Sequence record: PP526941.1
Source of the DNA: Escherichia phage vB_EcoM_ECO78
Strand: one strand, 5' to 3'
DNA: 64,000 bases
Position numbers and translations under genes: made by a program
In this document: one piece after another, positions 4,373-32,634 of the stretch
Position numbering within the stretch: the first letter of the stretch is position 1
How the letters are laid out: each line of letters begins with the position of its first letter
The notes under the pieces: generated by a model
Seen by the model: the letters and a program-made list of their open reading frames with translations, nothing else
Databases searched by the model: none
What the model was told of the DNA's origin: nothing

Positions 4373-5010
4373 TGAATGAACCCCAATTACTAATTGAAAC
4401 TTGGGGTCAACCTGGCGAAATTATTGATGGCGTACCAATGCTTGAATCTCATGATGGAAAAGACTTAGGTTTAAAACCGGGTTTATACATCGAAGGAATA
4501 TTCATGCAAGCGGAAGTCGTCAATAGAAATAAACGTCTTTATCCAAAACGTATATTAGAAAAAGCGGTAAAAGACTATATTAATGAGCAAGTTTTAACTA
4601 AACAAGCTCTCGGAGAATTAAATCATCCTCCACGCGCTAATGTTGACCCAATGCAAGCCGCTATCATTATAGAAGATATGTGGTGGAAAGGAAATGACGT
4701 ATACGGACGAGCTCGTGTTATTGAAGGTGACCATGGTCCTGGAGATAAATTAGCAGCTAATATTCGTGCCGGATGGATTCCAGGAGTTTCTTCTCGTGGA
4801 TTAGGTTCATTGACTGACACAAATAAAGGTTATCGTATCGTAAACGAAGGATTCAAATTAACTGTAGGTGTTGATGCAGTATGGGGTCCAAGTGCTCCAG
4901 ATGCATGGGTAACTCCTAAGGAAATTACCGAATCACAGACGGCGGAAGCCGATACAAGTGCCGATGACGCCTATATGGCTCTCGCAGAGGCCATGAAAAA
5001 AGCGTTATAA
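4372..5010 (+). CDS. 21: prohead core protease gp21
   Basis: 212 aa, the T4 gp21 length; overlapping TAATG junction with gene 68; synteny upstream of 22-23. Confidence 0.88.
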   Translation: MNEPQLLIETWGQPGEIIDGVPMLESHDGKDLGLKPGLYIEGIFMQAEVVNRNKRLYPKRILEKAVKDYINEQVLTKQALGELNHPPRANVDPMQAAIIIEDMWWKGNDVYGRARVIEGDHGPGDKLAANIRAGWIPGVSSRGLGSLTDTNKGYRIVNEGFKLTVGVDAVWGPSAPDAWVTPKEITESQTAEADTSADDAYMALAEAMKKAL

Positions 5011-5013
5011 ATA
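5006..5013 (+). promoter_or_regulatory. T4-type late promoter (TATAAATA) for gene 22
   Basis: Exact TATAAATA overlapping the gene 21 stop codon, 28 nt upstream of the gene 22 ATG. Confidence 0.55.
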
Positions 5014-5040
5014 TTATTATCTAAACAACAGGACTACAAA

Positions 5041-5850
5041 ATGCTTAAAGAACAACTGATTGCCGAAGCGCAGAAAATTGATGCTTCCGTTGCTCTTGAT
5101 AGTATTTTCGAATCAGTTAATATTTCTCCGGAAGCAAAAGAAACTTTCGGCACTGTATTCGAAGCTACCGTCAAGCAGCACGCCGTTAAATTAGCTGAAT
5201 CTCATATCGCTAAAATTGCTGAAAAAGCAGAAGAAGAAGTAGAAAAAAATAAAGAAGAAGCCGAAGAAAAAGCTGAGAAGAAAATCGCTGAGCAAGCTTC
5301 TAAATTCATTGACCATCTTGCGAAAGAATGGCTCGCTGAAAATAAATTAGCAGTTGATAAAGGTATCAAAGCCGAACTGTTTGAATCCATGCTTGGTGGA
5401 TTAAAAGAGCTCTTTGTTGAACACAACGTTGTTGTTCCAGAAGAATCAGTTGATGTTGTAGCTGAAATGGAAGAAGAGCTGCAAGAACATAAAGAAGAAT
5501 CAGCTCGTCTGTTCGAAGAACTCAATATGCGCGACGCATATATCAATTATGTGCAGCGTGAAGTGGCATTGAGCGAAAGTACTAAAGATCTGACTGAGTC
5601 TCAAAAAGAAAAAGTCTCTGCTCTGGTCGAAGGTATGGATTATTCAGATGCATTCTCAAGTAAATTGAGTGCAATCGTAGAAATGGTGAAGAAATCTAAT
5701 AAAGATGAAAGCACTATTACTGAGAGTATAAATACTCCTGATACTGAAGCAGCCGGACTGAATTTCGTCACTGAAGCTGTAGAAGATAAAGCTGCACAGG
5801 GTGCAGAAGATATTGTAAGTGTATATGCGAAAGTCGCATCTCGTTTCTAA
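5041..5850 (+). CDS. 22: prohead scaffolding core protein gp22
   Basis: 269 aa; Glu/Lys/Ala-rich predicted coiled-coil protein; synteny directly upstream of gene 23. Confidence 0.88.
   Translation: MLKEQLIAEAQKIDASVALDSIFESVNISPEAKETFGTVFEATVKQHAVKLAESHIAKIAEKAEEEVEKNKEEAEEKAEKKIAEQASKFIDHLAKEWLAENKLAVDKGIKAELFESMLGGLKELFVEHNVVVPEESVDVVAEMEEELQEHKEESARLFEELNMRDAYINYVQREVALSESTKDLTESQKEKVSALVEGMDYSDAFSSKLSAIVEMVKKSNKDESTITESINTPDTEAAGLNFVTEAVEDKAAQGAEDIVSVYAKVASRF
5727..5734 (+). promoter_or_regulatory. TATAAATA late-promoter motif inside the 3' part of gene 22 (candidate gene 23 promoter)
   Basis: Exact TATAAATA 135 nt upstream of the gene 23 ATG; no other match nearer. Confidence 0.35.
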
Positions 5851-23577: not shown

Positions 23578-23607
23578 ACTATAACACAACACGAGGGACT
23601 TGTAAAC
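23578..23607 (-). promoter_or_regulatory. T4 early-type promoter (copy 1 of a duplicated promoter/leader cassette)
   Basis: Minus strand: GTTTACA (-35), 17-18 nt spacer, TATAGT (-10), leader ...CAUAACAUGAGGA to ATG; near-identical to 38401-38454. Confidence 0.55.
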
Positions 23608-25664
23608 TACATTTTGAACTTTTTAGACATTCCGTTGATGTTAACCAAAGAAGCTAAGATTTGAGAAACTTCATTTTCCTCTTCTTTTGATTCTTCTACA
23701 AGGAATTGATTAAATCCAGCCATTGGACGAACTTCACCAGTTTCCATTAGATGGTCGCCATCATATACCGATTCCTCTAATTGTTCAGAAGGAGGAACGA
23801 TTGTACCTTCGATTAGATACTTGTTATAAGCAGTTTCTTTCATAAAGTACGTACTTACTTTATTAATCTTCAGTAAAATTCCACGTGGTAGAATAACTTC
23901 AGCTTCTGATGGAAATCCTGATAAATGACCTGGAACGATAACTTTGATTCGTTCAGCTCCTTTAATTACCATACCCACGCTAGTTTCAGCATCTTCATTA
24001 GCATATGTAGAATGACTACCCATATGCATCAAATCTTCTGCATCAACGGAACCTTCTCCTTCACCAGAAAATACTGCGCCGGAATCATCTAGAGCCATAT
24101 AGTTTTTACCATGCTCGCCGAAGATATTTGGTTTAAGTGATGTTGATACGAAGTTCTTGAAATAGAACATTTTATTTTCAATGTTATGACGCAAAGTTTT
24201 AAAGGTAACTTCTTGTCCGCGATAAAGCGTAGTTCCTGGAGGAAGAACTGATCCTTTGGCAAAGGCAGAATCAAGCGTCTCAATATGTTTAATAGCTCGT
24301 TCCATATATTCTTCACGGGTAGAATCTGGTTTACCCAAAAGGAACGAGTTCATTTCAACATATGAATCTGCACAATAATCTTCAATTACATCAGATTCAG
24401 CTTGAGTTAATCCTTTTGGAGTTACTTCAGTACTTGCATATTCATACGCCTGAGCGGCAGATTCATTAATCAATTTATAAATGCCATTCATTACAAATTG
24501 AATAATAGCTGTCTTTTCATCTGGCGTGGCTTTAGAACCTTTAACTAAATCATTAATAATTTTCTTAATAACATCAAAGCTATTAGAAATATTAATGTCA
24601 GCAAGATCGCTTAAAATTTTATCAGTTTTATAATCAAAGAATTCTTTATTCTTTAAATATTCTTGAGAACCTTGATATGTTATATCGCTCTGCAACTTGA
24701 TAGATGGATCACGTAAACGTGCATGGGCTAATGCAATATGATTTCGGAAGTTTTCTAGTTCATAATCGCTAGATTTAAAACGAGAAGCACTTCTCATACC
24801 ACCAATAGCTCCTTTGTTGAAGTTTGAACCAATCTGAATAACGCCAGAGTTCATCGGACCTTCTGCTTTATATACCGGAACCTTAGATTCAAACTCTTGA
24901 TATTTCTTAGCAGCGAAGCTATCACCCTGAAGTGAAGCATCAACAGTAGAATATTGAGCTTGTGCTGCTAATCGACGACTAATTTTAGTTTTCTGAATAA
25001 CAGCTTGATCAGTGCGCTTATCATTTTCTAAAGCAATAGAAGCAGCAACAGCGACAGCTTTAGGAACAGCATTACCTGTTTTAACGTCTACATAAACATC
25101 ACCAACCTTTGATTCAACTTTTGTGAATAACTCAGTTGAAATAGGAGGTACACCTGGAATGTCTTCTAAATTGGCATTTTTACGGTAAACCATAATATAT
25201 GCATACTTTTTATCATAGTCCCAGATTTCCTTTAAAAGAACATAACGACCTGCTCCTTTAGTACGTACTAAACGGTCAGCAATAACTTGCATTTGACGAG
25301 CTGCGCCATTTGTTTTACTTTTTAGTACGCGGAATAAGCATGCATCAATTTTATACTGTTTCATTGTTTGAAGAGCAGTATCAAAAACAGCATTAATGAC
25401 ACCAATTGGATTTCCACCCAAGTTTTTAAGCTTAACCAGCGATAGTTTCTCATTAACACCTATCATTACGATATGCATCATTTTATCGCCTGGCTTAACG
25501 TTTTTATTTGTATCACCGCCAGAGGTGTATGTACAAAATCTAAATCCAGGAAGCACGCTTTCTTCACCAGCTTGAATAGCAAAAATTTGAGGTATTTTAT
25601 GCTTAGGATTTAAGTTAACAACCGGCGCCGAAGCGCCGTCAAATAATTCTGTAATAAGTTCCAT
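23607..25664 (-). CDS. Alt-like ADP-ribosyltransferase, downstream paralogue
   Basis: 685 aa; N-terminus MELITELFDGASAPVVNLNPKHKIPQIF parallels the upstream Alt; C-terminal R-S-E ART signature (YRGQ...FVSTSL...SEAEVILPRG). Confidence 0.8.
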   Translation of the reverse strand: MELITELFDGASAPVVNLNPKHKIPQIFAIQAGEESVLPGFRFCTYTSGGDTNKNVKPGDKMMHIVMIGVNEKLSLVKLKNLGGNPIGVINAVFDTALQTMKQYKIDACLFRVLKSKTNGAARQMQVIADRLVRTKGAGRYVLLKEIWDYDKKYAYIMVYRKNANLEDIPGVPPISTELFTKVESKVGDVYVDVKTGNAVPKAVAVAASIALENDKRTDQAVIQKTKISRRLAAQAQYSTVDASLQGDSFAAKKYQEFESKVPVYKAEGPMNSGVIQIGSNFNKGAIGGMRSASRFKSSDYELENFRNHIALAHARLRDPSIKLQSDITYQGSQEYLKNKEFFDYKTDKILSDLADINISNSFDVIKKIINDLVKGSKATPDEKTAIIQFVMNGIYKLINESAAQAYEYASTEVTPKGLTQAESDVIEDYCADSYVEMNSFLLGKPDSTREEYMERAIKHIETLDSAFAKGSVLPPGTTLYRGQEVTFKTLRHNIENKMFYFKNFVSTSLKPNIFGEHGKNYMALDDSGAVFSGEGEGSVDAEDLMHMGSHSTYANEDAETSVGMVIKGAERIKVIVPGHLSGFPSEAEVILPRGILLKINKVSTYFMKETAYNKYLIEGTIVPPSEQLEESVYDGDHLMETGEVRPMAGFNQFLVEESKEEENEVSQILASLVNINGMSKKFKM

Positions 25665-25667
25665 GAT

Positions 25668-27764
25668 TTATCCTTGAACGAACTTGTAAGGCATGTTTGT
25701 AATATCTATGCAAGACGCAATAATTCCAAGAGATGATTCTACTTTTTGTTTAACATTTGATGAAACAAACGATGCAAAGTCAACTCTGTCTTCTATTTCA
25801 ATATCACCTGTCATTGCAACTACTTCACCGGTTTCCATTAGACGGTCACCGTCATAAATTACTGATTCGGTGAGTTCTTCCGTAGTCATAACTTCAGCTT
25901 GAATGAGTTTTGTATTATTAGATGTTGTTCCGTCATTATTAGAAGCATCAGTTATTTTATTAACTTTGACCATCAATCCGCGTGGTAGAATAACTTCAGC
26001 TTCTGTTGCTATTCCGAGACTTCCTGGATATACAACATTAACTTTATGAGCTCCATCAATTGCCCATCCTATTTGAACTTTAACGTATTCAGGATTTTCT
26101 TTATACGCTCTTATTTCGTTTGGATTAATAGTTATTCCTTCTTCATTTTTATCAACTGTCAATTCATTACGAGCTTCTGGTTCTAAAAGACCAATACCAG
26201 CATGCGTAATTCCAAAACGTCCAAAAATGATAGGAGTTAAAGAAGTAGATACAAAATTTCTGAAATAAAACACTTTATTTTTAACTAGTGCTTCGTATAT
26301 AGGAGCAGTCATGCTTTGAGCACGATAAACTGTAATGCCTTCTGGTATACGGTCACCGTTTTCAAAAGCTGAATCTAAGTTATTTATAGCAGATTCAATT
26401 TCTTTTTCACTCATTACATCATATCGTTCTGGATTGTAGCGACCCAAAAGAAGATTATTGATGTCAGTATATCCTGAACCGCAATACTCTCTAATGCCGC
26501 GCTTTTGTGATGGAGTATATTTAGAACCATCACGGGCAATAGTAATATCAATCATTGGACCTGCACCAATTCCAGAAAAGCTATAAATCATTCGTTTGAG
26601 GAATTTAGTTTTTGCTGCGTTCCAGGAATTTTTAGTTATTTCTTCCCAGACTTCATCTGGCTGTCCTTTACGGGTTTTATTATGTTTATCAAGCCAATTA
26701 TCTTTATATTCTTCAAAGAATTTATTAACAGCTGCTGCGTATTTCTCTAAACATTTTATTGAAGTAGTTGGTTCATTTTTAATCGCATTAAGAATTACAT
26801 CTTTAATTTTTTCAGAAACTTCATCAACCTCACTTTTTGAAAAGAATTTATAGTCATAGTGAAGTTCATTTGCAGTTCCTTCAGCAATAATTTTTGCTGC
26901 CTTAGTTTTAGAAGCTAATGAATTAATTCCAAGCTTCATTTCTTCTGCTTCGGGAATTAAAGGAGCGGTAGCAGGTTTATTAAAATTAGCTGCGGTAGAT
27001 TCATACTTCTGGAATAATTCACTTTCAAATCTAGAAGATTCTAATGATTGACTTTGCGCAATTGCTCTACGGGAAATTTTAACTTTAACAATAACAGCTT
27101 GGTCAGAACGTTTATCATTTTCTTGTGCAATAGATGCTGCAATTGCCTCATTTTTAGTTACTTGAGCTCCAGTATCTTTATTGATATAAACATCACCGAC
27201 CTTCGATTCAACTTTAGTAAAGAGCTCGGTACTAATTTCCGGAACTCCTGGAATGTCTTCTAGTGATACATTTTTGCGATGTATAAGAATATATGCATAC
27301 TTTTTATCATAATCCCAGAGTTCCTTAAGAAGGACGTATCTGCCACCTGAACGACTACGGATGAGCCTATCAGCAATAACTTGAATTTGTCGAGCTTGGC
27401 CAGCAGTTTTAGACTTAAGAATACGAAGCATACAAGCATCAATTTTATACTGACGCATAGTTTGCATTGCAACAGTAAAAACTGAATTGATATAATTAAT
27501 TGGGCTTGGTCCAAGACCTTTTAATTTAGCAATTGAACCTTTAGCAGTTAATGTAAAAGGAACAATATGCATCATTTTATCGCCCATCTTTAAATCACGA
27601 TTAGTATCACCTCCAGATGTATAGGTACATAAACGAAAGCCTGGTTGTTCAATTGCATCATCAACATGAACTGAAAAAATTTGCGGTATTTTCTTCTTTG
27701 GATTTAAGTTTGTAATCGGAAGAGTAGTATCTTCGTCAAATAATTCTGTAATGAGTTCCATCAT
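25668..27764 (-). CDS. alt: NAD-protein ADP-ribosyltransferase Alt (head-packaged)
   Basis: 698 aa (697 if started at the second ATG, 27761); N-terminal capsid-targeting region MELITELFDEDTT...; C-terminal ART motifs YRAQ...FVSTSL...TEAEVILPRG; late promoter upstream. Confidence 0.88.
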   Translation of the reverse strand: MMELITELFDEDTTLPITNLNPKKKIPQIFSVHVDDAIEQPGFRLCTYTSGGDTNRDLKMGDKMMHIVPFTLTAKGSIAKLKGLGPSPINYINSVFTVAMQTMRQYKIDACMLRILKSKTAGQARQIQVIADRLIRSRSGGRYVLLKELWDYDKKYAYILIHRKNVSLEDIPGVPEISTELFTKVESKVGDVYINKDTGAQVTKNEAIAASIAQENDKRSDQAVIVKVKISRRAIAQSQSLESSRFESELFQKYESTAANFNKPATAPLIPEAEEMKLGINSLASKTKAAKIIAEGTANELHYDYKFFSKSEVDEVSEKIKDVILNAIKNEPTTSIKCLEKYAAAVNKFFEEYKDNWLDKHNKTRKGQPDEVWEEITKNSWNAAKTKFLKRMIYSFSGIGAGPMIDITIARDGSKYTPSQKRGIREYCGSGYTDINNLLLGRYNPERYDVMSEKEIESAINNLDSAFENGDRIPEGITVYRAQSMTAPIYEALVKNKVFYFRNFVSTSLTPIIFGRFGITHAGIGLLEPEARNELTVDKNEEGITINPNEIRAYKENPEYVKVQIGWAIDGAHKVNVVYPGSLGIATEAEVILPRGLMVKVNKITDASNNDGTTSNNTKLIQAEVMTTEELTESVIYDGDRLMETGEVVAMTGDIEIEDRVDFASFVSSNVKQKVESSLGIIASCIDITNMPYKFVQG

Positions 27765-27815: not shown

Positions 27816-28002
27816 AATAATCTATTGGTAAGAGAGTACGATATATTTCAAACTTTGGACCTTTTTCATAGGCATCAAATGTTTCTGTGAATTTATTATA
27901 AGCATATGCATCTATAAATTCAATCATGATTTGTGATACAGAAGTAGAAACATCTCCACCTTCTTTTTGAGCCACGACAATTGTTTCTAAGTAAGCTTTC
28001 AT
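27814..28002 (-). CDS. small hypothetical protein ATGA-coupled to gene 30
   Basis: 62-aa ORF; its ATG overlaps the ligase TGA stop. Confidence 0.45.
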   Translation of the reverse strand: MKAYLETIVVAQKEGGDVSTSVSQIMIEFIDAYAYNKFTETFDAYEKGPKFEIYRTLLPIDY

Positions 28003-29462
28003 AAACCAGTTACCTCATGAAAATCACCAAATACATCTTCGAATGTATTAGCTTTAGTTTTATCTTCACGCAAACGAATCGCAATTGGAAGAAATAATTT
28101 AACGTAATCGGTGCGGCCATCAGATTTTAACCAACCGTTGCATTCGCACTCTAGAATTTTTCCAATATAATAATTTTGGTTTTCCATAATGCGAGTACGG
28201 TCAAGTTCATGCGATTTTACACCGGCTTTATCTTTTAAGCCTGAACCAGCATTTACTTTAATTTTTCCACACTCTGACTCAAGAATAAATCCACCCGCTT
28301 TAGTAGGGTCTTTACGGTGAGGATAAATTCCTACAATTTTTAAATCAACATCAATTACTTCTTTAAATTTATAGAGATTTTTTGAACGAGCATTTTCCCA
28401 TAATCCATCGATATTTTTGAGAATAATACCTTCAAGACCTTGGTCAATATACTTTTTATAAATTACCTTAGCTTCATCCAGGTTATTTACTACTTGGTTT
28501 TCAATTAAAATTACTTTATCATAGCCTGATGTCATTTGTTCTAGTTTAGAAAAACGTACATCATATTTCAAACGAAATGCTGGAAGACCGTATATTTCTA
28601 CCAACGGTACATAATCCCAGACCTGAAACTTCATGCATTGTGCTTCTTTTTCTGAAATAGTTCCCTTTAAAGATTTATTGGCGATGCCATTAGATGCAGT
28701 ACGTGATTCAGCTACTTCTGTGAAGTCTTTAGCTTTACTGTTTTCAGGGTGAGCATCAAAAAGAAAATCTAGGCCTTCTGGTTCCTTTTCAACTTGCTCA
28801 TGGTATACCAATTCGCCATCAATTAACACACCTTCTGGATGAATCTGGCGGGCTTCAGCAGTCATTTTGATTAATTCTTCCTTAAGAAGATCTAATCCTA
28901 GATATTCATTACCAGCTCGTGATAAAAGACGAACATCATCTAATTCATCGCCTCGGACTTCAGCAAAACACCGAGCTCCATCAGCTTTTAACTGGGCAAA
29001 GGCTGGAAATTTGATATTCTTATTAATGCCTTTTTCATCATAAGAACTTGCTAGCATTTGAGGTTGTTCAGGAATTAAACCTGGCCAAACTTTGTTTGCA
29101 ATAGATACTGAAGCACCACATTCAAGGTCTCGCATCATCACTCGACGCAAAACTTCAACATCATCTTTTTTACCGTCAGTAATATAACCTACTAATTCCT
29201 CAATTGCCGCATTTCCAGTCAATTTCCGAGTAGCTAACGTGAATTCAATGAAGTCAAGCATATCGGTAAGAGTCAACATTCCAAAACTCTGGGTAGCAAT
29301 ACCAGGTTTAGGCCATTTCTTGATATAATATTGTAACCCACGAGAATAAGTCAGACGATATACTCGTTTAAGCAATTCATTATCTTTATTCTTTTCAAGA
29401 ATTGCTTGCTTCTGCTTAGTTGAACCAATAGATGCTATTTCGTTCAGAATTTTAAGAATCAT
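27999..29462 (-). CDS. 30: ATP-dependent DNA ligase gp30
   Basis: 487 aa; adenylation motif KADG (AQLKADGARCF); sequence recognised as essentially the T4 DNA ligase. Confidence 0.96.
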   Translation of the reverse strand: MILKILNEIASIGSTKQKQAILEKNKDNELLKRVYRLTYSRGLQYYIKKWPKPGIATQSFGMLTLTDMLDFIEFTLATRKLTGNAAIEELVGYITDGKKDDVEVLRRVMMRDLECGASVSIANKVWPGLIPEQPQMLASSYDEKGINKNIKFPAFAQLKADGARCFAEVRGDELDDVRLLSRAGNEYLGLDLLKEELIKMTAEARQIHPEGVLIDGELVYHEQVEKEPEGLDFLFDAHPENSKAKDFTEVAESRTASNGIANKSLKGTISEKEAQCMKFQVWDYVPLVEIYGLPAFRLKYDVRFSKLEQMTSGYDKVILIENQVVNNLDEAKVIYKKYIDQGLEGIILKNIDGLWENARSKNLYKFKEVIDVDLKIVGIYPHRKDPTKAGGFILESECGKIKVNAGSGLKDKAGVKSHELDRTRIMENQNYYIGKILECECNGWLKSDGRTDYVKLFLPIAIRLREDKTKANTFEDVFGDFHEVTGL

Positions 29463-29728
29463 TGCTCATCCTTTAGAGTTTGGTTTACAGCTCTATTATA
29501 AATCAATTCATCATTAAGCTCAGTCAAAGACCTATGATATGTAGTTCTAACTTTATTTCCTTGCATCCAATGCTTGACGTAAATGAAACCTTGCTCTACA
29601 CATTTTTTAAAAATTCGTTCGTCTTTTTGAGCTCGGAATTCTGGATTGCATCTAAAAAATTGATTTACGTGACCATAATCACGTGTAGTATTACCTTCAT
29701 TTTCATAAATAGTGTGAACAACAAACAT
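29459..29728 (-). CDS. hypothetical protein (position of T4 30.1)
   Basis: 89 aa; ATGA-coupled upstream of gene 30. Confidence 0.55.
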   Translation of the reverse strand: MFVVHTIYENEGNTTRDYGHVNQFFRCNPEFRAQKDERIFKKCVEQGFIYVKHWMQGNKVRTTYHRSLTELNDELIYNRAVNQTLKDEQ

Positions 29729-30582
29729 TAGAATGCTCCTTGGAAAATATTATCACCACTACCACTAGTAAGTCTATTAAAATACCCTGCATCGCCGGGC
29801 TTAATATAACTCCACGTATGGAATGGATGCATCTGGTGTGAGTGCGTATAATATGGATGATATGGATTATAAGGATTAAATCCAGGAGTTCTCCAGGTAG
29901 TGTTCCAGCGAAAAGAATCGTTTTTAATCATCTTCTCAATTACATCTTTTATAGCTTTTTCACTATCAAAATTTTCTTTATTTTCCTTCAATGGAAAAAG
30001 CTTATTCTCTACATCATTCCATGTATAAACTCGCTGTGCAGTTTTTGGAATATTGTCACGCTCTCCTCGAGCCATCCAATACACAGGAACACGTAATATT
30101 TCACTCGCATGATCGCAGTGGTGAGCGAGATCGTCAATATAACAAATTACGTTATATTTCTCTTTTGCCTTTTTGAACAACTCTTCTTTTGAAGAATCAT
30201 GACCACACATCATTACTTCCGAGAAGGCACCAGGAAAAAGAGCATTCAAATTAAATTGACGATTCAACAAAGCGTCAATAGAATCACCCAATGCTGTAAC
30301 AGCTACAAAATTATAATCTTCTTTTAATTTGTTAATTACACACAGGGCATCTTTATATGGAGACAAATAACGAATAAAATCTGATCGATTGTATTTTTCA
30401 ATTAGCTTAACGCCAAGTTCTTCATCACAATTAAAGAGTTTACCTGGAGAAATAAATTTCTCATCCTGGATCATTTTTAAAATATGTTCCAACGGAAGAT
30501 TATATTTCTGAGCAAAATAAGGAAGGCCTGATTGCCAGCTTAAACATACTCCATCAATATCAGTTAAAATAGTAGGCTTCAT
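29728..30582 (-). CDS. HAD-superfamily hydrolase-like protein (position of T4 30.2)
   Basis: 284 aa; N-terminal HAD motif I ILTDIDGVCL; family assignment from motif only. Confidence 0.6.
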   Translation of the reverse strand: MKPTILTDIDGVCLSWQSGLPYFAQKYNLPLEHILKMIQDEKFISPGKLFNCDEELGVKLIEKYNRSDFIRYLSPYKDALCVINKLKEDYNFVAVTALGDSIDALLNRQFNLNALFPGAFSEVMMCGHDSSKEELFKKAKEKYNVICYIDDLAHHCDHASEILRVPVYWMARGERDNIPKTAQRVYTWNDVENKLFPLKENKENFDSEKAIKDVIEKMIKNDSFRWNTTWRTPGFNPYNPYHPYYTHSHQMHPFHTWSYIKPGDAGYFNRLTSGSGDNIFQGAF

Positions 30583-31043
30583 AGAGAGTCTCTTAATAGG
30601 TTTAACACATCAATAAATTCAGCTTCGGTTAGTATTGTATCATCTTTTGTTAGACCACTAGCCATGCTGTGCTTCAAAACTTTTCCTTTCGAGGCTTGTA
30701 ATGCATCACGAAAGCCCTTGTTTTGGATCGCTGCTTCAAAATATGCATTTGTGTATAATTCTTTCCACGCCGGGGAGTATCTTGAAAATGGAACTCCAAG
30801 CCAGAAGAGGGTCCCACGGTCCTGAGCTCTAGCATAAGCTCGTCCAGCTTGTTGGGCGGCAAGCCCGGATAACCCAAATATACGTCTTTGCTGTTCAACA
30901 TTTTTCACTTTACATCCTTGAAGGAATCCTTCGAGACCTCCAAATTGAATGCCATCCATAACGAAAGGCCATTGGGCGAAATTACTTAATGCACATGATG
31001 GCCATCTAAAATTACTTCTAATCTCTAACTCAGACATTTTCAA
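30579..31043 (-). CDS. NADAR (YbiA-like) domain protein (position of T4 30.3)
   Basis: 154 aa; resemblance to the NADAR/DUF1768 family (WPSCALSNFAQ...FxxxEx pattern); family assignment is by recollection, not search. Confidence 0.55.
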   Translation of the reverse strand: MKMSELEIRSNFRWPSCALSNFAQWPFVMDGIQFGGLEGFLQGCKVKNVEQQRRIFGLSGLAAQQAGRAYARAQDRGTLFWLGVPFSRYSPAWKELYTNAYFEAAIQNKGFRDALQASKGKVLKHSMASGLTKDDTILTEAEFIDVLNLLRDSL

Positions 31044-31236
31044 TGCTTATAATTTCAACATCAGCCCAATGACCATAGCAAGGAAGACGAAATTCAACTG
31101 GCCAGTTAGGGTCCTTTTCTAATATAATAGACTCAACTTGTGGTTCTTCGTGTTCATCAGTATACGGATTTTTATCTGTTACTTTATATGTGACCTTAAT
31201 GTACTGAATTCCAAAAATCTTATTAATTATATTCAT
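31030..31236 (-). CDS. hypothetical protein
   Basis: 68-aa ORF in the tightly packed 30.x block. Confidence 0.45.
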   Translation of the reverse strand: MNIINKIFGIQYIKVTYKVTDKNPYTDEHEEPQVESIILEKDPNWPVEFRLPCYGHWADVEIISIENV

Positions 31237-32191: not shown

Positions 32192-32524
32192 TTATTTTAC
32201 TACTTTCCAGTGCTGCATGTCAAGTTTACCAACTTTTTTCATCTTCTCAATTAAGCGTTCTGCGCGTTGGCGAGCTGTAACATAATGCCATTCACCTAAT
32301 TCATTTTGTTCAATTTTTCCAACGATTACTGTATTCAATTCATAAATCCAACCAGTAAAGAAATTATGAACTTGAATTGTAAAGGTGAAATCTGTTCCCA
32401 TACCTTCTGTTGTTTCTACTTCAATAATATCACCTTCAACTGCCATTAAGAACCACATAGTTTCATCATATTTACCGTTGAAGCATTTAGTTTTAACTGC
32501 AGCGTTCAGATTAATTGTTTTCAT
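32192..32524 (-). CDS. hypothetical protein
   Basis: 110-aa ORF preceded by an early-type promoter and AAAGGAG SD. Confidence 0.55.
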   Translation of the reverse strand: MKTINLNAAVKTKCFNGKYDETMWFLMAVEGDIIEVETTEGMGTDFTFTIQVHNFFTGWIYELNTVIVGKIEQNELGEWHYVTARQRAERLIEKMKKVGKLDMQHWKVVK

Positions 32525-32581: not shown

Positions 32582-32611
32582 AACTTTATGCAATCTTTGG
32601 AAAATAAAAAA

Positions 32612-32629
32612 GGACTCCCGAAGGAGTCC
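32612..32629 (-). terminator. rho-independent terminator
   Basis: GGACUCC-UUCG-GGAGUCC followed on the minus strand by UUUUUUAUUUU. Confidence 0.65.
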
Positions 32630-32634
32630 TCAAC

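Follow-up and report, generated by a model that had tools for sequence, protein, structure and literature searches.

The DNA analyzed here (the window, 64 kb in length) derives from a Tequatrovirus (T4-like) genome, and the flagged stretch corresponds to T4 genes 30.3, 30.2, and 30.1; many Tequatrovirus genomes are 97% identical to this region at the DNA level. The reading frames described in an initial annotation of this DNA are all present on the minus strand, with two full-length Alt genes and the ligase gene nearby (Table 1). Start and stop codons overlap throughout the 30.4/30.3/30.2/30.1/30 series, all of which is encoded on the minus strand; for example, the stop codon of 30.3 overlaps the start codon of 30.2 in an ATGA. 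Gene 30.1, on which the initial annotation is silent, sits between 30.2 and the ligase gene. The 154-aa version of 30.3 results from a TTG start at position 31043, and the ATG annotated in T4 lies two codons downstream (31037). The gene 30.2 protein begins MKPTILTDIDGV. The product of gene 30.4 had no match in the Pfam scan. At the position where the window phage has a second full-length Alt gene, T4 has only the degenerate remnants alt.-1/alt.-2.

Table 1. Genes and promoter-like site in and around the 30.3–30.1 region (positions in the window)
Feature	Position	Strand	Basis
Second full-length Alt paralogue, 685 aa	23607..25664	-	41% identity to neighboring Alt, full length
alt, protein ADP-ribosyltransferase, 698 aa	25668..27764	-	Pfam ADPrib_exo_Tox at 1.8e-37; position equals that of T4 alt
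Gene 30, ATP-dependent DNA ligase	27999..29462	-	Pfam DNA_ligase_A_M at 5.3e-33
Gene 30.1, 89 aa, DUF3045	29459..29728	-	Pfam PF11243 at 2.9e-64; 99% identity to T4 gp30.1
Gene 30.2, HAD-superfamily phosphatase (predicted), 284 aa	29728..30582	-	92% identity to T4 gp30.2
Gene 30.3 (adfN), 152 aa from ATG	30579..31037	-	Identity to T4 gp30.3; Pfam PF08010
Gene 30.4, 68-aa ORF	31030..31236	-	Stop overlaps adfN start
Sigma-70-like promoter site (best match) upstream of 30.7	32194..32223	-	TTGACA-18-TAAAAT, 11/12 positions

The sigma-70-like site upstream of 30.7 was the single strong match in the promoter scan and was called by its match to the consensus alone; promoter-like sites as a class were not in excess in the region (24, versus 22.1 ± 4.5 in shuffled sequence). 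When the minus strand between this site and gene 30 was scanned, no terminator-like sites were seen, and the site may drive a transcription unit running from 30.7 to 30.

The product of 30.3 shares 150 of its 152 residues with T4 gp30.3 and matches the Pfam family PF08010 (Phage_30_3) over its full length at 4.6e-70. The two substitutions relative to T4, S67A and I125M, are conservative and lie away from the catalytic residues, and the second is a shift to the family consensus residue among 44 homologs. The same set of homologs shows no variation at E36 and H123 and at least 90% conservation of K43; all three, whose functional roles have been described previously (PMC11825919, PMC11543638, PMC11125620), are present in the window protein. 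The C-terminal helix is of full length; it is placed at residues 138–151 in the structural model, and the alignment with T4 reaches the last residue. With 99% identity and with the functional residues and the C-terminal helix intact, the window protein is the orthologue of T4 AdfN and most probably shares its function.

Direct searches for NADAR and HAD families with the window proteins were negative. The Pfam scan gave no PF08719 (NADAR) match for gp30.3 at E ≤1, gp30.2 matched no Pfam or NCBIfam family at E ≤1, HAD and NT5C families included, the NCBIfam scan of the window proteins yielded no NADAR or HAD match, and single-sequence searches of PDB sequences with these proteins returned chance matches only. 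Homolog alignments, profiles, and structure prediction were therefore needed. The AF2 model of gp30.3 (pLDDT 93, pTM 0.88) had as its top three PDB matches in Foldseek the NADAR-type structures YbiA (2b3w), PnNADAR (8bau), and Geobacter lovleyi NADAR (8bat), with probabilities of 1.00, 1.00, and 0.99, respectively, whereas all other PDB matches had probabilities of at most 0.08. Eighteen of the 44 homologs matched the Pfam NADAR family (best 1.5e-7), and a profile built from the 44 matched Escherichia coli YbiA over the LSNF...EGF..Q motif (E 0.0047). Structure prediction and transitive homology thus place gp30.3 in the NADAR superfamily, within the phage gp30.3/AdfN clade. The NADAR-like character proposed in the initial annotation for the 154-aa frame is upheld, as is the HAD-like character proposed for the frame containing ILTDIDGV, for which a HAD fold and all catalytic motifs were found (see below); the link to each family runs through homologs, profiles, or structure, and neither protein matched in the direct profile search that the initial annotation had named as its refuting test.

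T4 gp30.3 has been described as AdfN, the anti-DarT factor NADAR (Johannesman et al. 2025, PMC11825919), a free-standing NADAR-fold DNA ADP-ribosylglycohydrolase through which T-even phages can grow on DarTG1 hosts. The T4 protein strips ADP-ribose in vitro from DarT1-modified DNA, it is impaired by E36A, by K43A, and by a C-terminal truncation of the RB69 type, and T4 becomes sensitive to DarTG1 when adfN is deleted (PMC11825919). The RB69 allele, which is 15 residues shorter at the C-terminus, is impaired. T4 gp30.3 cleaves guanine-ADP-ribose but not thymine-ADP-ribose (PMC11125620), and a His in the last strand is the marker of the phage NADAR clade (PMC11543638, PMC11125620). The suggestion that the 154-aa protein may erase guanine ADP-ribosylation made by DarT-type toxins is therefore already published for a 99%-identical protein (PMC11825919, PMC11125620). 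Because the AdfN identity and the anti-DarTG1 role are established for T4, the window contributes one more intact allele; it agrees with T4 AdfN in length (152 aa), in the slot between 30.4 and 30.2, in E36/K43/H123, and in the intact C-terminal helix, and it differs at S67A and I125M, the tested protein being that of T4.

The following mechanism has been demonstrated by experiment for the T4 protein and most probably holds for the window allele. The host DarT1 toxin ADP-ribosylates guanines of the phage DNA and thereby blocks replication. AdfN cuts the N-glycosidic bond between ADP-ribose and guanine, with E36, K43, and the phage-clade H123 as the catalytic residues, and the restored DNA permits phage replication on DarTG1 hosts; AdfN neither binds DarT1 nor acts on the thymine-ADP-ribose made by DarT2. 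T4 AdfN does not rescue uninfected cells from DarT1 toxicity, and it barely rescues T5 and Bas25 (PMC11825919, PMC11125620). These two observations imply some T-even-specific requirement; AdfN is fully active only in T-even infection, and an additional phage protein was suggested by the authors (PMC11825919). An assay for rescue of DarT toxicity, as envisaged in the initial annotation, would give a false negative because T4 AdfN fails in uninfected cells (PMC11825919, PMC11125620).

The DarTG1 systems of E. coli C7 and G. lovleyi have a NADAR antitoxin of their own, DarG1 (PDB 8bat; Schuller et al. 2023, PMC11543638). It shares the fold of gp30.3 and the chemistry of AdfN, namely the de-ADP-ribosylation of guanine in DNA, but has an Asp in the last strand where the phage clade has a His. 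Furthermore, DarG1 is encoded with its toxin and neutralizes DarT1 in uninfected cells, whereas T4 AdfN is an orphan and does not (PMC11825919, PMC11125620). E. coli YbiA (2b3w, Pfam NADAR PF08719) is the best structural match of gp30.3 (Foldseek E 2.2e-5, TM 0.67) and the sole significant profile–sequence match of its family; however, the YbiA subfamily has a Glu in the last strand and belongs to PF08719, whereas the window protein falls into the separate Pfam family PF08010. According to a HIDEN-SEQ preprint (10.1101/2025.11.20.689424), T4 Tk.4 is AdfM, a macrodomain anti-DarTG2 factor. AdfM resembles AdfN in being an orphan, antitoxin-like ADP-ribose eraser from the same phage group, with the thymine-specific DarT2 as its target, but its macrodomain fold is unrelated to that of AdfN, and it is encoded at a different locus. 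AdfN is one layer of T-even counter-defense against DarTG toxin–antitoxin immunity, and the presence and integrity of adfN predict the growth of therapeutic T4-like phages on DarTG1-carrying E. coli.

A published transposon-insertion sequencing (Tn-seq) experiment with T4 on DarTG1 bears on each gene of the block. Insertions in 30.3 were lost (log2FC −7.25, padj 0), while 30.2, with 71 insertion sites, was unaffected (log2FC −0.12, p 0.61), and 30.1 and alt were neutral (log2FC −0.01 each). Gene 30.4 was mildly depleted (log2FC −1.79, padj 0.014), which is most simply explained by a polar effect on 30.3; a less likely reading is that gp30.4 is a T-even-specific helper that AdfN needs. T4 requires gp30.2 neither to grow on K-12 nor to counter DarTG1.

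For gp30.2, no report of a function or of its biochemistry was found in the searchable literature. All four HAD motifs (I, DxD; II, Thr/Ser; III, Lys; IV, DD) are present in the protein; D8, D10, G11, and K132 are invariant among 44 homologs, and T96, D150, and D151 are at least 90% conserved. The second Asp of the DxD motif marks HAD phosphatases and not dehalogenases. The model of gp30.2 contains the Rossmannoid HAD core fold, with a five-helix C1 cap (H16–72) inserted after motif I. The NT5C-like core and the C1 cap together make up residues ~1–195, and the tail (residues ~226–284) is disordered, hypervariable, and rich in Pro, Tyr, His, and Trp. A Foldseek search gave 123 PDB matches at E ≤1e-3, and the best 50 of the 123 were HAD-superfamily proteins. 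The best PDB match of the family profile was mouse cdN (E 0.074), in which DxDGV...[F/W]xSGL was aligned. As in the NT5C type, the C1 cap is helical, and an aromatic residue for base stacking lies 8 residues beyond the nucleophile. Among the homologs, matches to the Pfam families Hydrolase (11/44), NT5C (7/44), and HAD_2 (7/44) were observed, those to Hydrolase and HAD_2 being sub-threshold and those to NT5C no better than 1.2e-4. Two remote relatives found with the gp30.2 profile (P0320 and P0340, E ~1e-21–1e-20) matched NT5C at 34.6 and 36.8 bits, above the gathering cut-off of 24.8.

Structure prediction and transitive homology thus point to gp30.2 as a genuine HAD-superfamily enzyme, and the fold closest to its model is that of the 5'(3')-deoxyribonucleotidases of the NT5C type. 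The identity of gp30.2 with cdN/mdN and bacterial NT5C-like proteins (2jao, 2i7d, 1q92, 3bwv; PF06941) is only 16–20%, and it differs from them in an additional C-terminal extension of ~90 residues that includes the disordered, hypervariable tail. We predict that gp30.2 is a Mg2+-dependent HAD phosphomonoesterase of an NT5C-like branch, in which Asp8 would form the phospho-aspartyl intermediate, Asp10 would serve as general acid/base, and the helical C1 cap would shut over the substrate, a small molecule and most probably a nucleotide. It is possible, though unlikely, that gp30.2 is a conditionally important nucleotide phosphatase with a counter-defense or pool-sanitizing role, in which it destroys either a host immune signal or trigger derived from a nucleotide or a dNMP liable to mis-incorporation.

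The gene neighborhoods of gp30.2 homologs were compared across 72 related loci. A ligase gene occurred within 600 nt of the 30.2 homolog at 64 loci, whereas a NADAR gene occurred within 6 kb at only 36; when the loci were clustered at 80% identity, the corresponding figures were 29 and 14 of 34 clusters. The HAD gene is therefore syntenic with ligase and not with the NADAR gene, although T4-like genomes are highly syntenic, and its adjacency to ligase in them may simply have been inherited vertically, with no functional tie behind it. Genes of the 30.3 and 30.2 types abut at 20 of the 72 loci, and gene 30.1 is present at 23; in one metagenomic protein (P0013), the gene 30.1 product is fused in frame to the HAD core. 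A jumbo-phage-like contig carries a distant gp30.3-type NADAR gene. None of the genes called in this 10.5-kb locus encodes a ligase, and Nudix and Thg1-like genes lie near the NADAR gene. The gene abutting it downstream was considered as a hidden gp30.2 homolog and rejected (hhalign probability 0.05, no Pfam match).

These observations allow the alternatives to be weighed. A true ADP-ribose toolkit, in which gp30.2 works with AdfN either by dephosphorylating an ADP-ribose breakdown product (ribose-5-phosphate or ADP-ribose-1''-phosphate) or as the missing T-even factor, would be consistent with the ATGA overlap, through which the two genes are coupled in translation and transcribed together, with the abutting gene pairs, and with the additional phage protein proposed for full AdfN activity (PMC11825919). 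However, the insertions in 30.2 were not depleted on DarTG1 in the Tn-seq data while those in 30.3 were lost, the HAD–ligase pair occurs at half of the related loci with no NADAR gene within 6 kb, and the NADAR gene of the jumbo-phage-like contig abuts a gene that is no gp30.2 homolog. RB69 growth is also restored by plasmid-borne adfN alone, but this argument is weak because RB69 has its own 30.2. Based on the T4 Tn-seq values and the neighborhood counts, we rejected gp30.2 as an AdfN cofactor or as a downstream ADP-ribose-processing enzyme; for DarTG1 resistance, such a partnership is largely refuted, and overall we regard it as highly improbable. The proximity of ligase could instead suggest that gp30.2 heals DNA ends as a 3'-phosphatase, as the HAD domain of T4 polynucleotide kinase/phosphatase does, and readies nicks for the adjacent ligase; polynucleotide kinase was also matched in PHROG, though weakly (E 0.0025). 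The five-helix cap argues against this role; C1-type HAD caps typically enclose small substrates, and the Pnkp phosphatase domain is capless. Moreover, the sequence links of gp30.2 lead to NT5C, and T4 already encodes PseT for DNA-end healing, making an end-healing role very unlikely. For gp30.3, the main role might be hydrolysis, in the style of a YbiA-type N-glycosidase, of soluble ADP-ribose-derived immune signals or of riboflavin-pathway intermediates, as the best single PDB match (YbiA) and the Nudix and Thg1-like neighbors in the one jumbo-phage-like contig might suggest. We consider this scarcely credible as the main role given the in vitro DNA de-ADP-ribosylation and the DarTG1-specific phenotype of the deletion and of the transposon insertions (PMC11825919, PMC11125620), and given that the catalytic residue of the last strand is His, where YbiA-subfamily proteins have Glu (PMC11125620); gp30.3 may nevertheless have a further activity beside DNA repair.

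Alt was likewise rejected as a functional partner of AdfN, because alt insertions were neutral on DarTG1 and because Alt modifies proteins whereas AdfN reverses a host-made mark on DNA. The initial annotation had proposed that this part of the genome both writes ADP-ribose on host proteins and may erase it from DNA. The mark that Alt writes on host proteins is not, however, the one that AdfN erases, which is a DNA modification made by the host; Alt is a separate ADP-ribosyltransferase, directed at proteins, and its place in the same early region is incidental. The grouping of HAD, NADAR, and Alt genes into one functional unit is likewise unsupported, as the HAD gene is syntenic with ligase and, according to the T4 Tn-seq values on DarTG1, neither 30.2 nor alt is needed for the resistance that depends on AdfN. 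Very probably, the T4 early-gene block upstream of ligase holds two unrelated enzymes, encoded by adfN and by 30.2, the latter an NT5C-like HAD phosphomonoesterase, with Alt separate from both. In most of the sampled T4-like phage lineages, the gp30.2 gene has been kept beside ligase, though it is dispensable in the laboratory.

The two ORFs upstream of the ligase gene comprise a published system, AdfN (the product of gene 30.3, gp30.3), and an ordinary, uncharacterised HAD phosphatase (gp30.2). The genome is that of a T4-like phage (Tequatrovirus), a 1.9-kb stretch of which, around these ORFs, shared 97% DNA identity with many T4-like phages of E. coli, Shigella, and Yersinia, and the T4 gene order was kept (alt / alt.1 / 30 / 30.1 / 30.2 / 30.3 / 30.4 and onward). 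The ORFs, the ligase gene, and two Alt paralogues were present as described in the initial annotation, which had missed gene 30.1 and had begun gene 30.3 at a TTG, where T4 annotates an ATG. Stop and start codons overlapped at all junctions from 30.4 through gene 30, and no terminator-like site was found on the same strand between the ligase gene and a strong promoter-like match that precedes 30.7; therefore, the 30.4-to-30 genes are most likely co-transcribed. A terminator-like hairpin 3' of 30.9 and this promoter match may be the limits of a 30.7-to-30 transcription unit.

Features of the gene 30 region (window positions)
Feature	Position	Strand	Description
Alt paralogue, full-length	23607-25664	-	41% identical to the other Alt
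Alt paralogue, full-length	25668-27764	-	41% identical to the other Alt
Gene 30 (ligase)	27999-29462	-	
Gene 30.1	29459-29728	-	89 aa, DUF3045, 99% identical to T4
Gene 30.2	29728-30582	-	284 aa, N-terminus MKPTILTDIDGV..., 92% identical to T4 gp30.2
C-terminal tail of gp30.2	29728-29905	-	~60 residues
Gene 30.3 (adfN)	30579-31037 (T4-annotated ATG); 30579-31043 (TTG)	-	150/152 identical to T4 gp30.3
T4 30.3' ORF	30674-30901	-	75 aa, other frame inside gene 30.3; also open here
Gene 30.4	31030-31236	-	68-aa ORF; stop overlaps adfN start
Sigma-70-like promoter match, strong	32194-32223	-	11/12 positions; just upstream of 30.7
Terminator-like hairpin, strong	32610-32631	-	9-bp stem GAGGACTCC...GGAGTCCTT + T-run; 3' of 30.9

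The 154-aa ORF encodes AdfN, a NADAR enzyme whose function has already been published. A Pfam scan of the window protein gave a match to PF08010 (Phage_30_3; 4.6e-70) but no direct match to NADAR, and the NADAR link was probed through homologues, a profile, and structure. Pfam NADAR was also matched by 18 of 44 diverse homologues (best 1.5e-7), and the profile of their alignment (A2) reached E. coli YbiA (2b3w; E 0.0047) across the conserved LSNF...EGFxQ segment. The AlphaFold2 model (pLDDT 93) matched exactly the three solved NADARs, namely YbiA (2b3w) and those of Phytophthora (8bau) and Geobacter lovleyi (DarG1-type, 8bat), with probabilities of 0.99–1.00, every other match being ≤0.08. Among NADARs, the gp30.3 proteins of phages form an already recognised clade whose last strand carries His in place of Glu/Asp (PMC11543638, PMC11125620). 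By these routes, the NADAR assignment in the initial annotation was right, as was the proposed erasure of guanine ADP-ribosylation: in vitro, T4 gp30.3 hydrolyses ADP-ribose on DNA when it is attached to guanine but not when it is attached to thymine (PMC11125620).

T4 gp30.3 owes the name AdfN to Johannesman et al. (PMC11825919). It is needed for T4 resistance to DarTG1, the host toxin-antitoxin system that ADP-ribosylates guanine in DNA, and is enough to rescue RB69; E36A, K43A, and an RB69-type 15-residue C-terminal truncation impair it, and it does not bind the toxin DarT1 (PMC11825919). E36, K43, H123, and the C-terminal helix were all kept in the window protein, and I125M, one of its two substitutions relative to T4, brings in the residue of the family consensus. 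Uninfected cells are not rescued from DarT1 toxicity by T4 AdfN, which also helps non-T-even phages only weakly (PMC11825919, PMC11125620), so the toxicity-rescue test first proposed would have been misleading. In an independent T4 transposon screen on DarTG1, 30.3 insertions were lost (log2FC −7.25, padj 0), and 30.2 (−0.12, p 0.61), 30.1 (−0.01), and alt (−0.01) were neutral. Mild depletion of 30.4 (log2FC −1.79, padj 0.014) was the only other significant depletion among the screen-table rows read; 30.5 (−3.0) was not significant. The simplest reading for 30.4, whose product had no family match, is a polar effect on 30.3; gp30.4 could conceivably help AdfN, whose action depends on a T-even context.

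For gp30.2, a profile check for HAD similarity came back empty (no match in Pfam or NCBIfam), PHROGs lists it as of unknown function, and no paper on its function was found in the literature searched. The HAD-like reading of the ILTDIDGV ORF was borne out by motifs, model, and sequence links. The motifs D8-x-D10-G11 (I), T96 (II), K132 (III), and D150-D151 (IV) were invariant or nearly so among 44 homologues (alignment A1), and the AlphaFold2 model was confident over residues 1–195 (pLDDT >90) and disordered over 226–284. The best PDB match of the A1 profile was mouse cdN (E 0.074), in an alignment that spanned motif I and the next [F/W]xSGL and placed the invariant W16 on a cdN Phe. Weak NT5C matches occurred in 7/44 homologues; an exhaustive profile search yielded 1357 representative relatives at E≤0.001, and two of ten relatives checked (P0320 and P0340) passed the NT5C gathering score at full length. 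The deoxyribonucleotidases (cdN, NT5C) are the closest group, but gp30.2 is divergent from them. We conclude that it is a putative HAD phosphomonoesterase of NT5C-like type that bears a C1 cap, so its substrate is probably a small molecule (nucleotide). The gene is non-essential in T4 (insertions at 72/72 sites).

Differences from T4 gp30.2 clustered in the C-terminal tail, which was disordered (pLDDT <50) and Pro/Tyr/His/Trp/Asn-rich, carried indels even relative to T4, and was missing or unrelated in many homologues of ~200 aa. The final residues GDNIFQGAF, common to T4 and vB_EcoM_ECO78, hint at a short docking motif. In a metagenomic relative of 302 aa (P0013), the HAD core was fused in frame to a gp30.1 (DUF3045) domain, which weakly suggests that the two products might act together. 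Because Asp replaces Gly in its motif I and its contig is just 1.4 kb, P0013 may stem from misassembly or from a gene in decay.

The initial annotation had grouped HAD, NADAR, and Alt as one ADP-ribosylation toolkit. We scanned 80 IMG/VR loci encoding gp30.2 relatives with profiles of gp30.2, gp30.3, gp30.1, ligase, and Alt, and counted neighbours in the 72 loci that were flanked by 3 kb or more on each side (34 clusters at 80% identity). A ligase gene lay within 600 nt of the gp30.2 homologue in 64/72 loci (29/34 clusters) and within 6 kb in 70/72, whereas a gp30.3 gene lay within 6 kb in 36/72 (14/34 clusters) and abutted it in 20/72 (9/34 clusters). Conversely, a gp30.3-type NADAR (38% identical in A2) at 5001-5468 of the 10.5-kb locus L082, on a 308-kb jumbo-phage-like ENA contig, had no gp30.2 homologue as its abutting downstream gene, and no ligase was among the called genes of the locus. 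Together with the neutral T4 screen, these results place the HAD gene with the ligase neighbourhood and speak against the toolkit; the HAD–ligase adjacency may be inherited synteny. A part for the HAD gene or Alt in the AdfN mechanism was rejected, as 30.2 and alt were neutral on DarTG1, and so was an Alt/AdfN writer–eraser pair, since Alt ADP-ribosylates host proteins and AdfN erases a host-written DNA mark. Alt and AdfN are encoded close together because of how the T4 early region is arranged.

The L082 NADAR gene was surrounded by unknown ORFs, with genes for a Nudix hydrolase and a Thg1-like protein a few kb away. T4 has a single alt and degenerate alt.-1/alt.-2 remnants, whereas the window holds two full-length Alt genes; several related loci also carried two alt copies.
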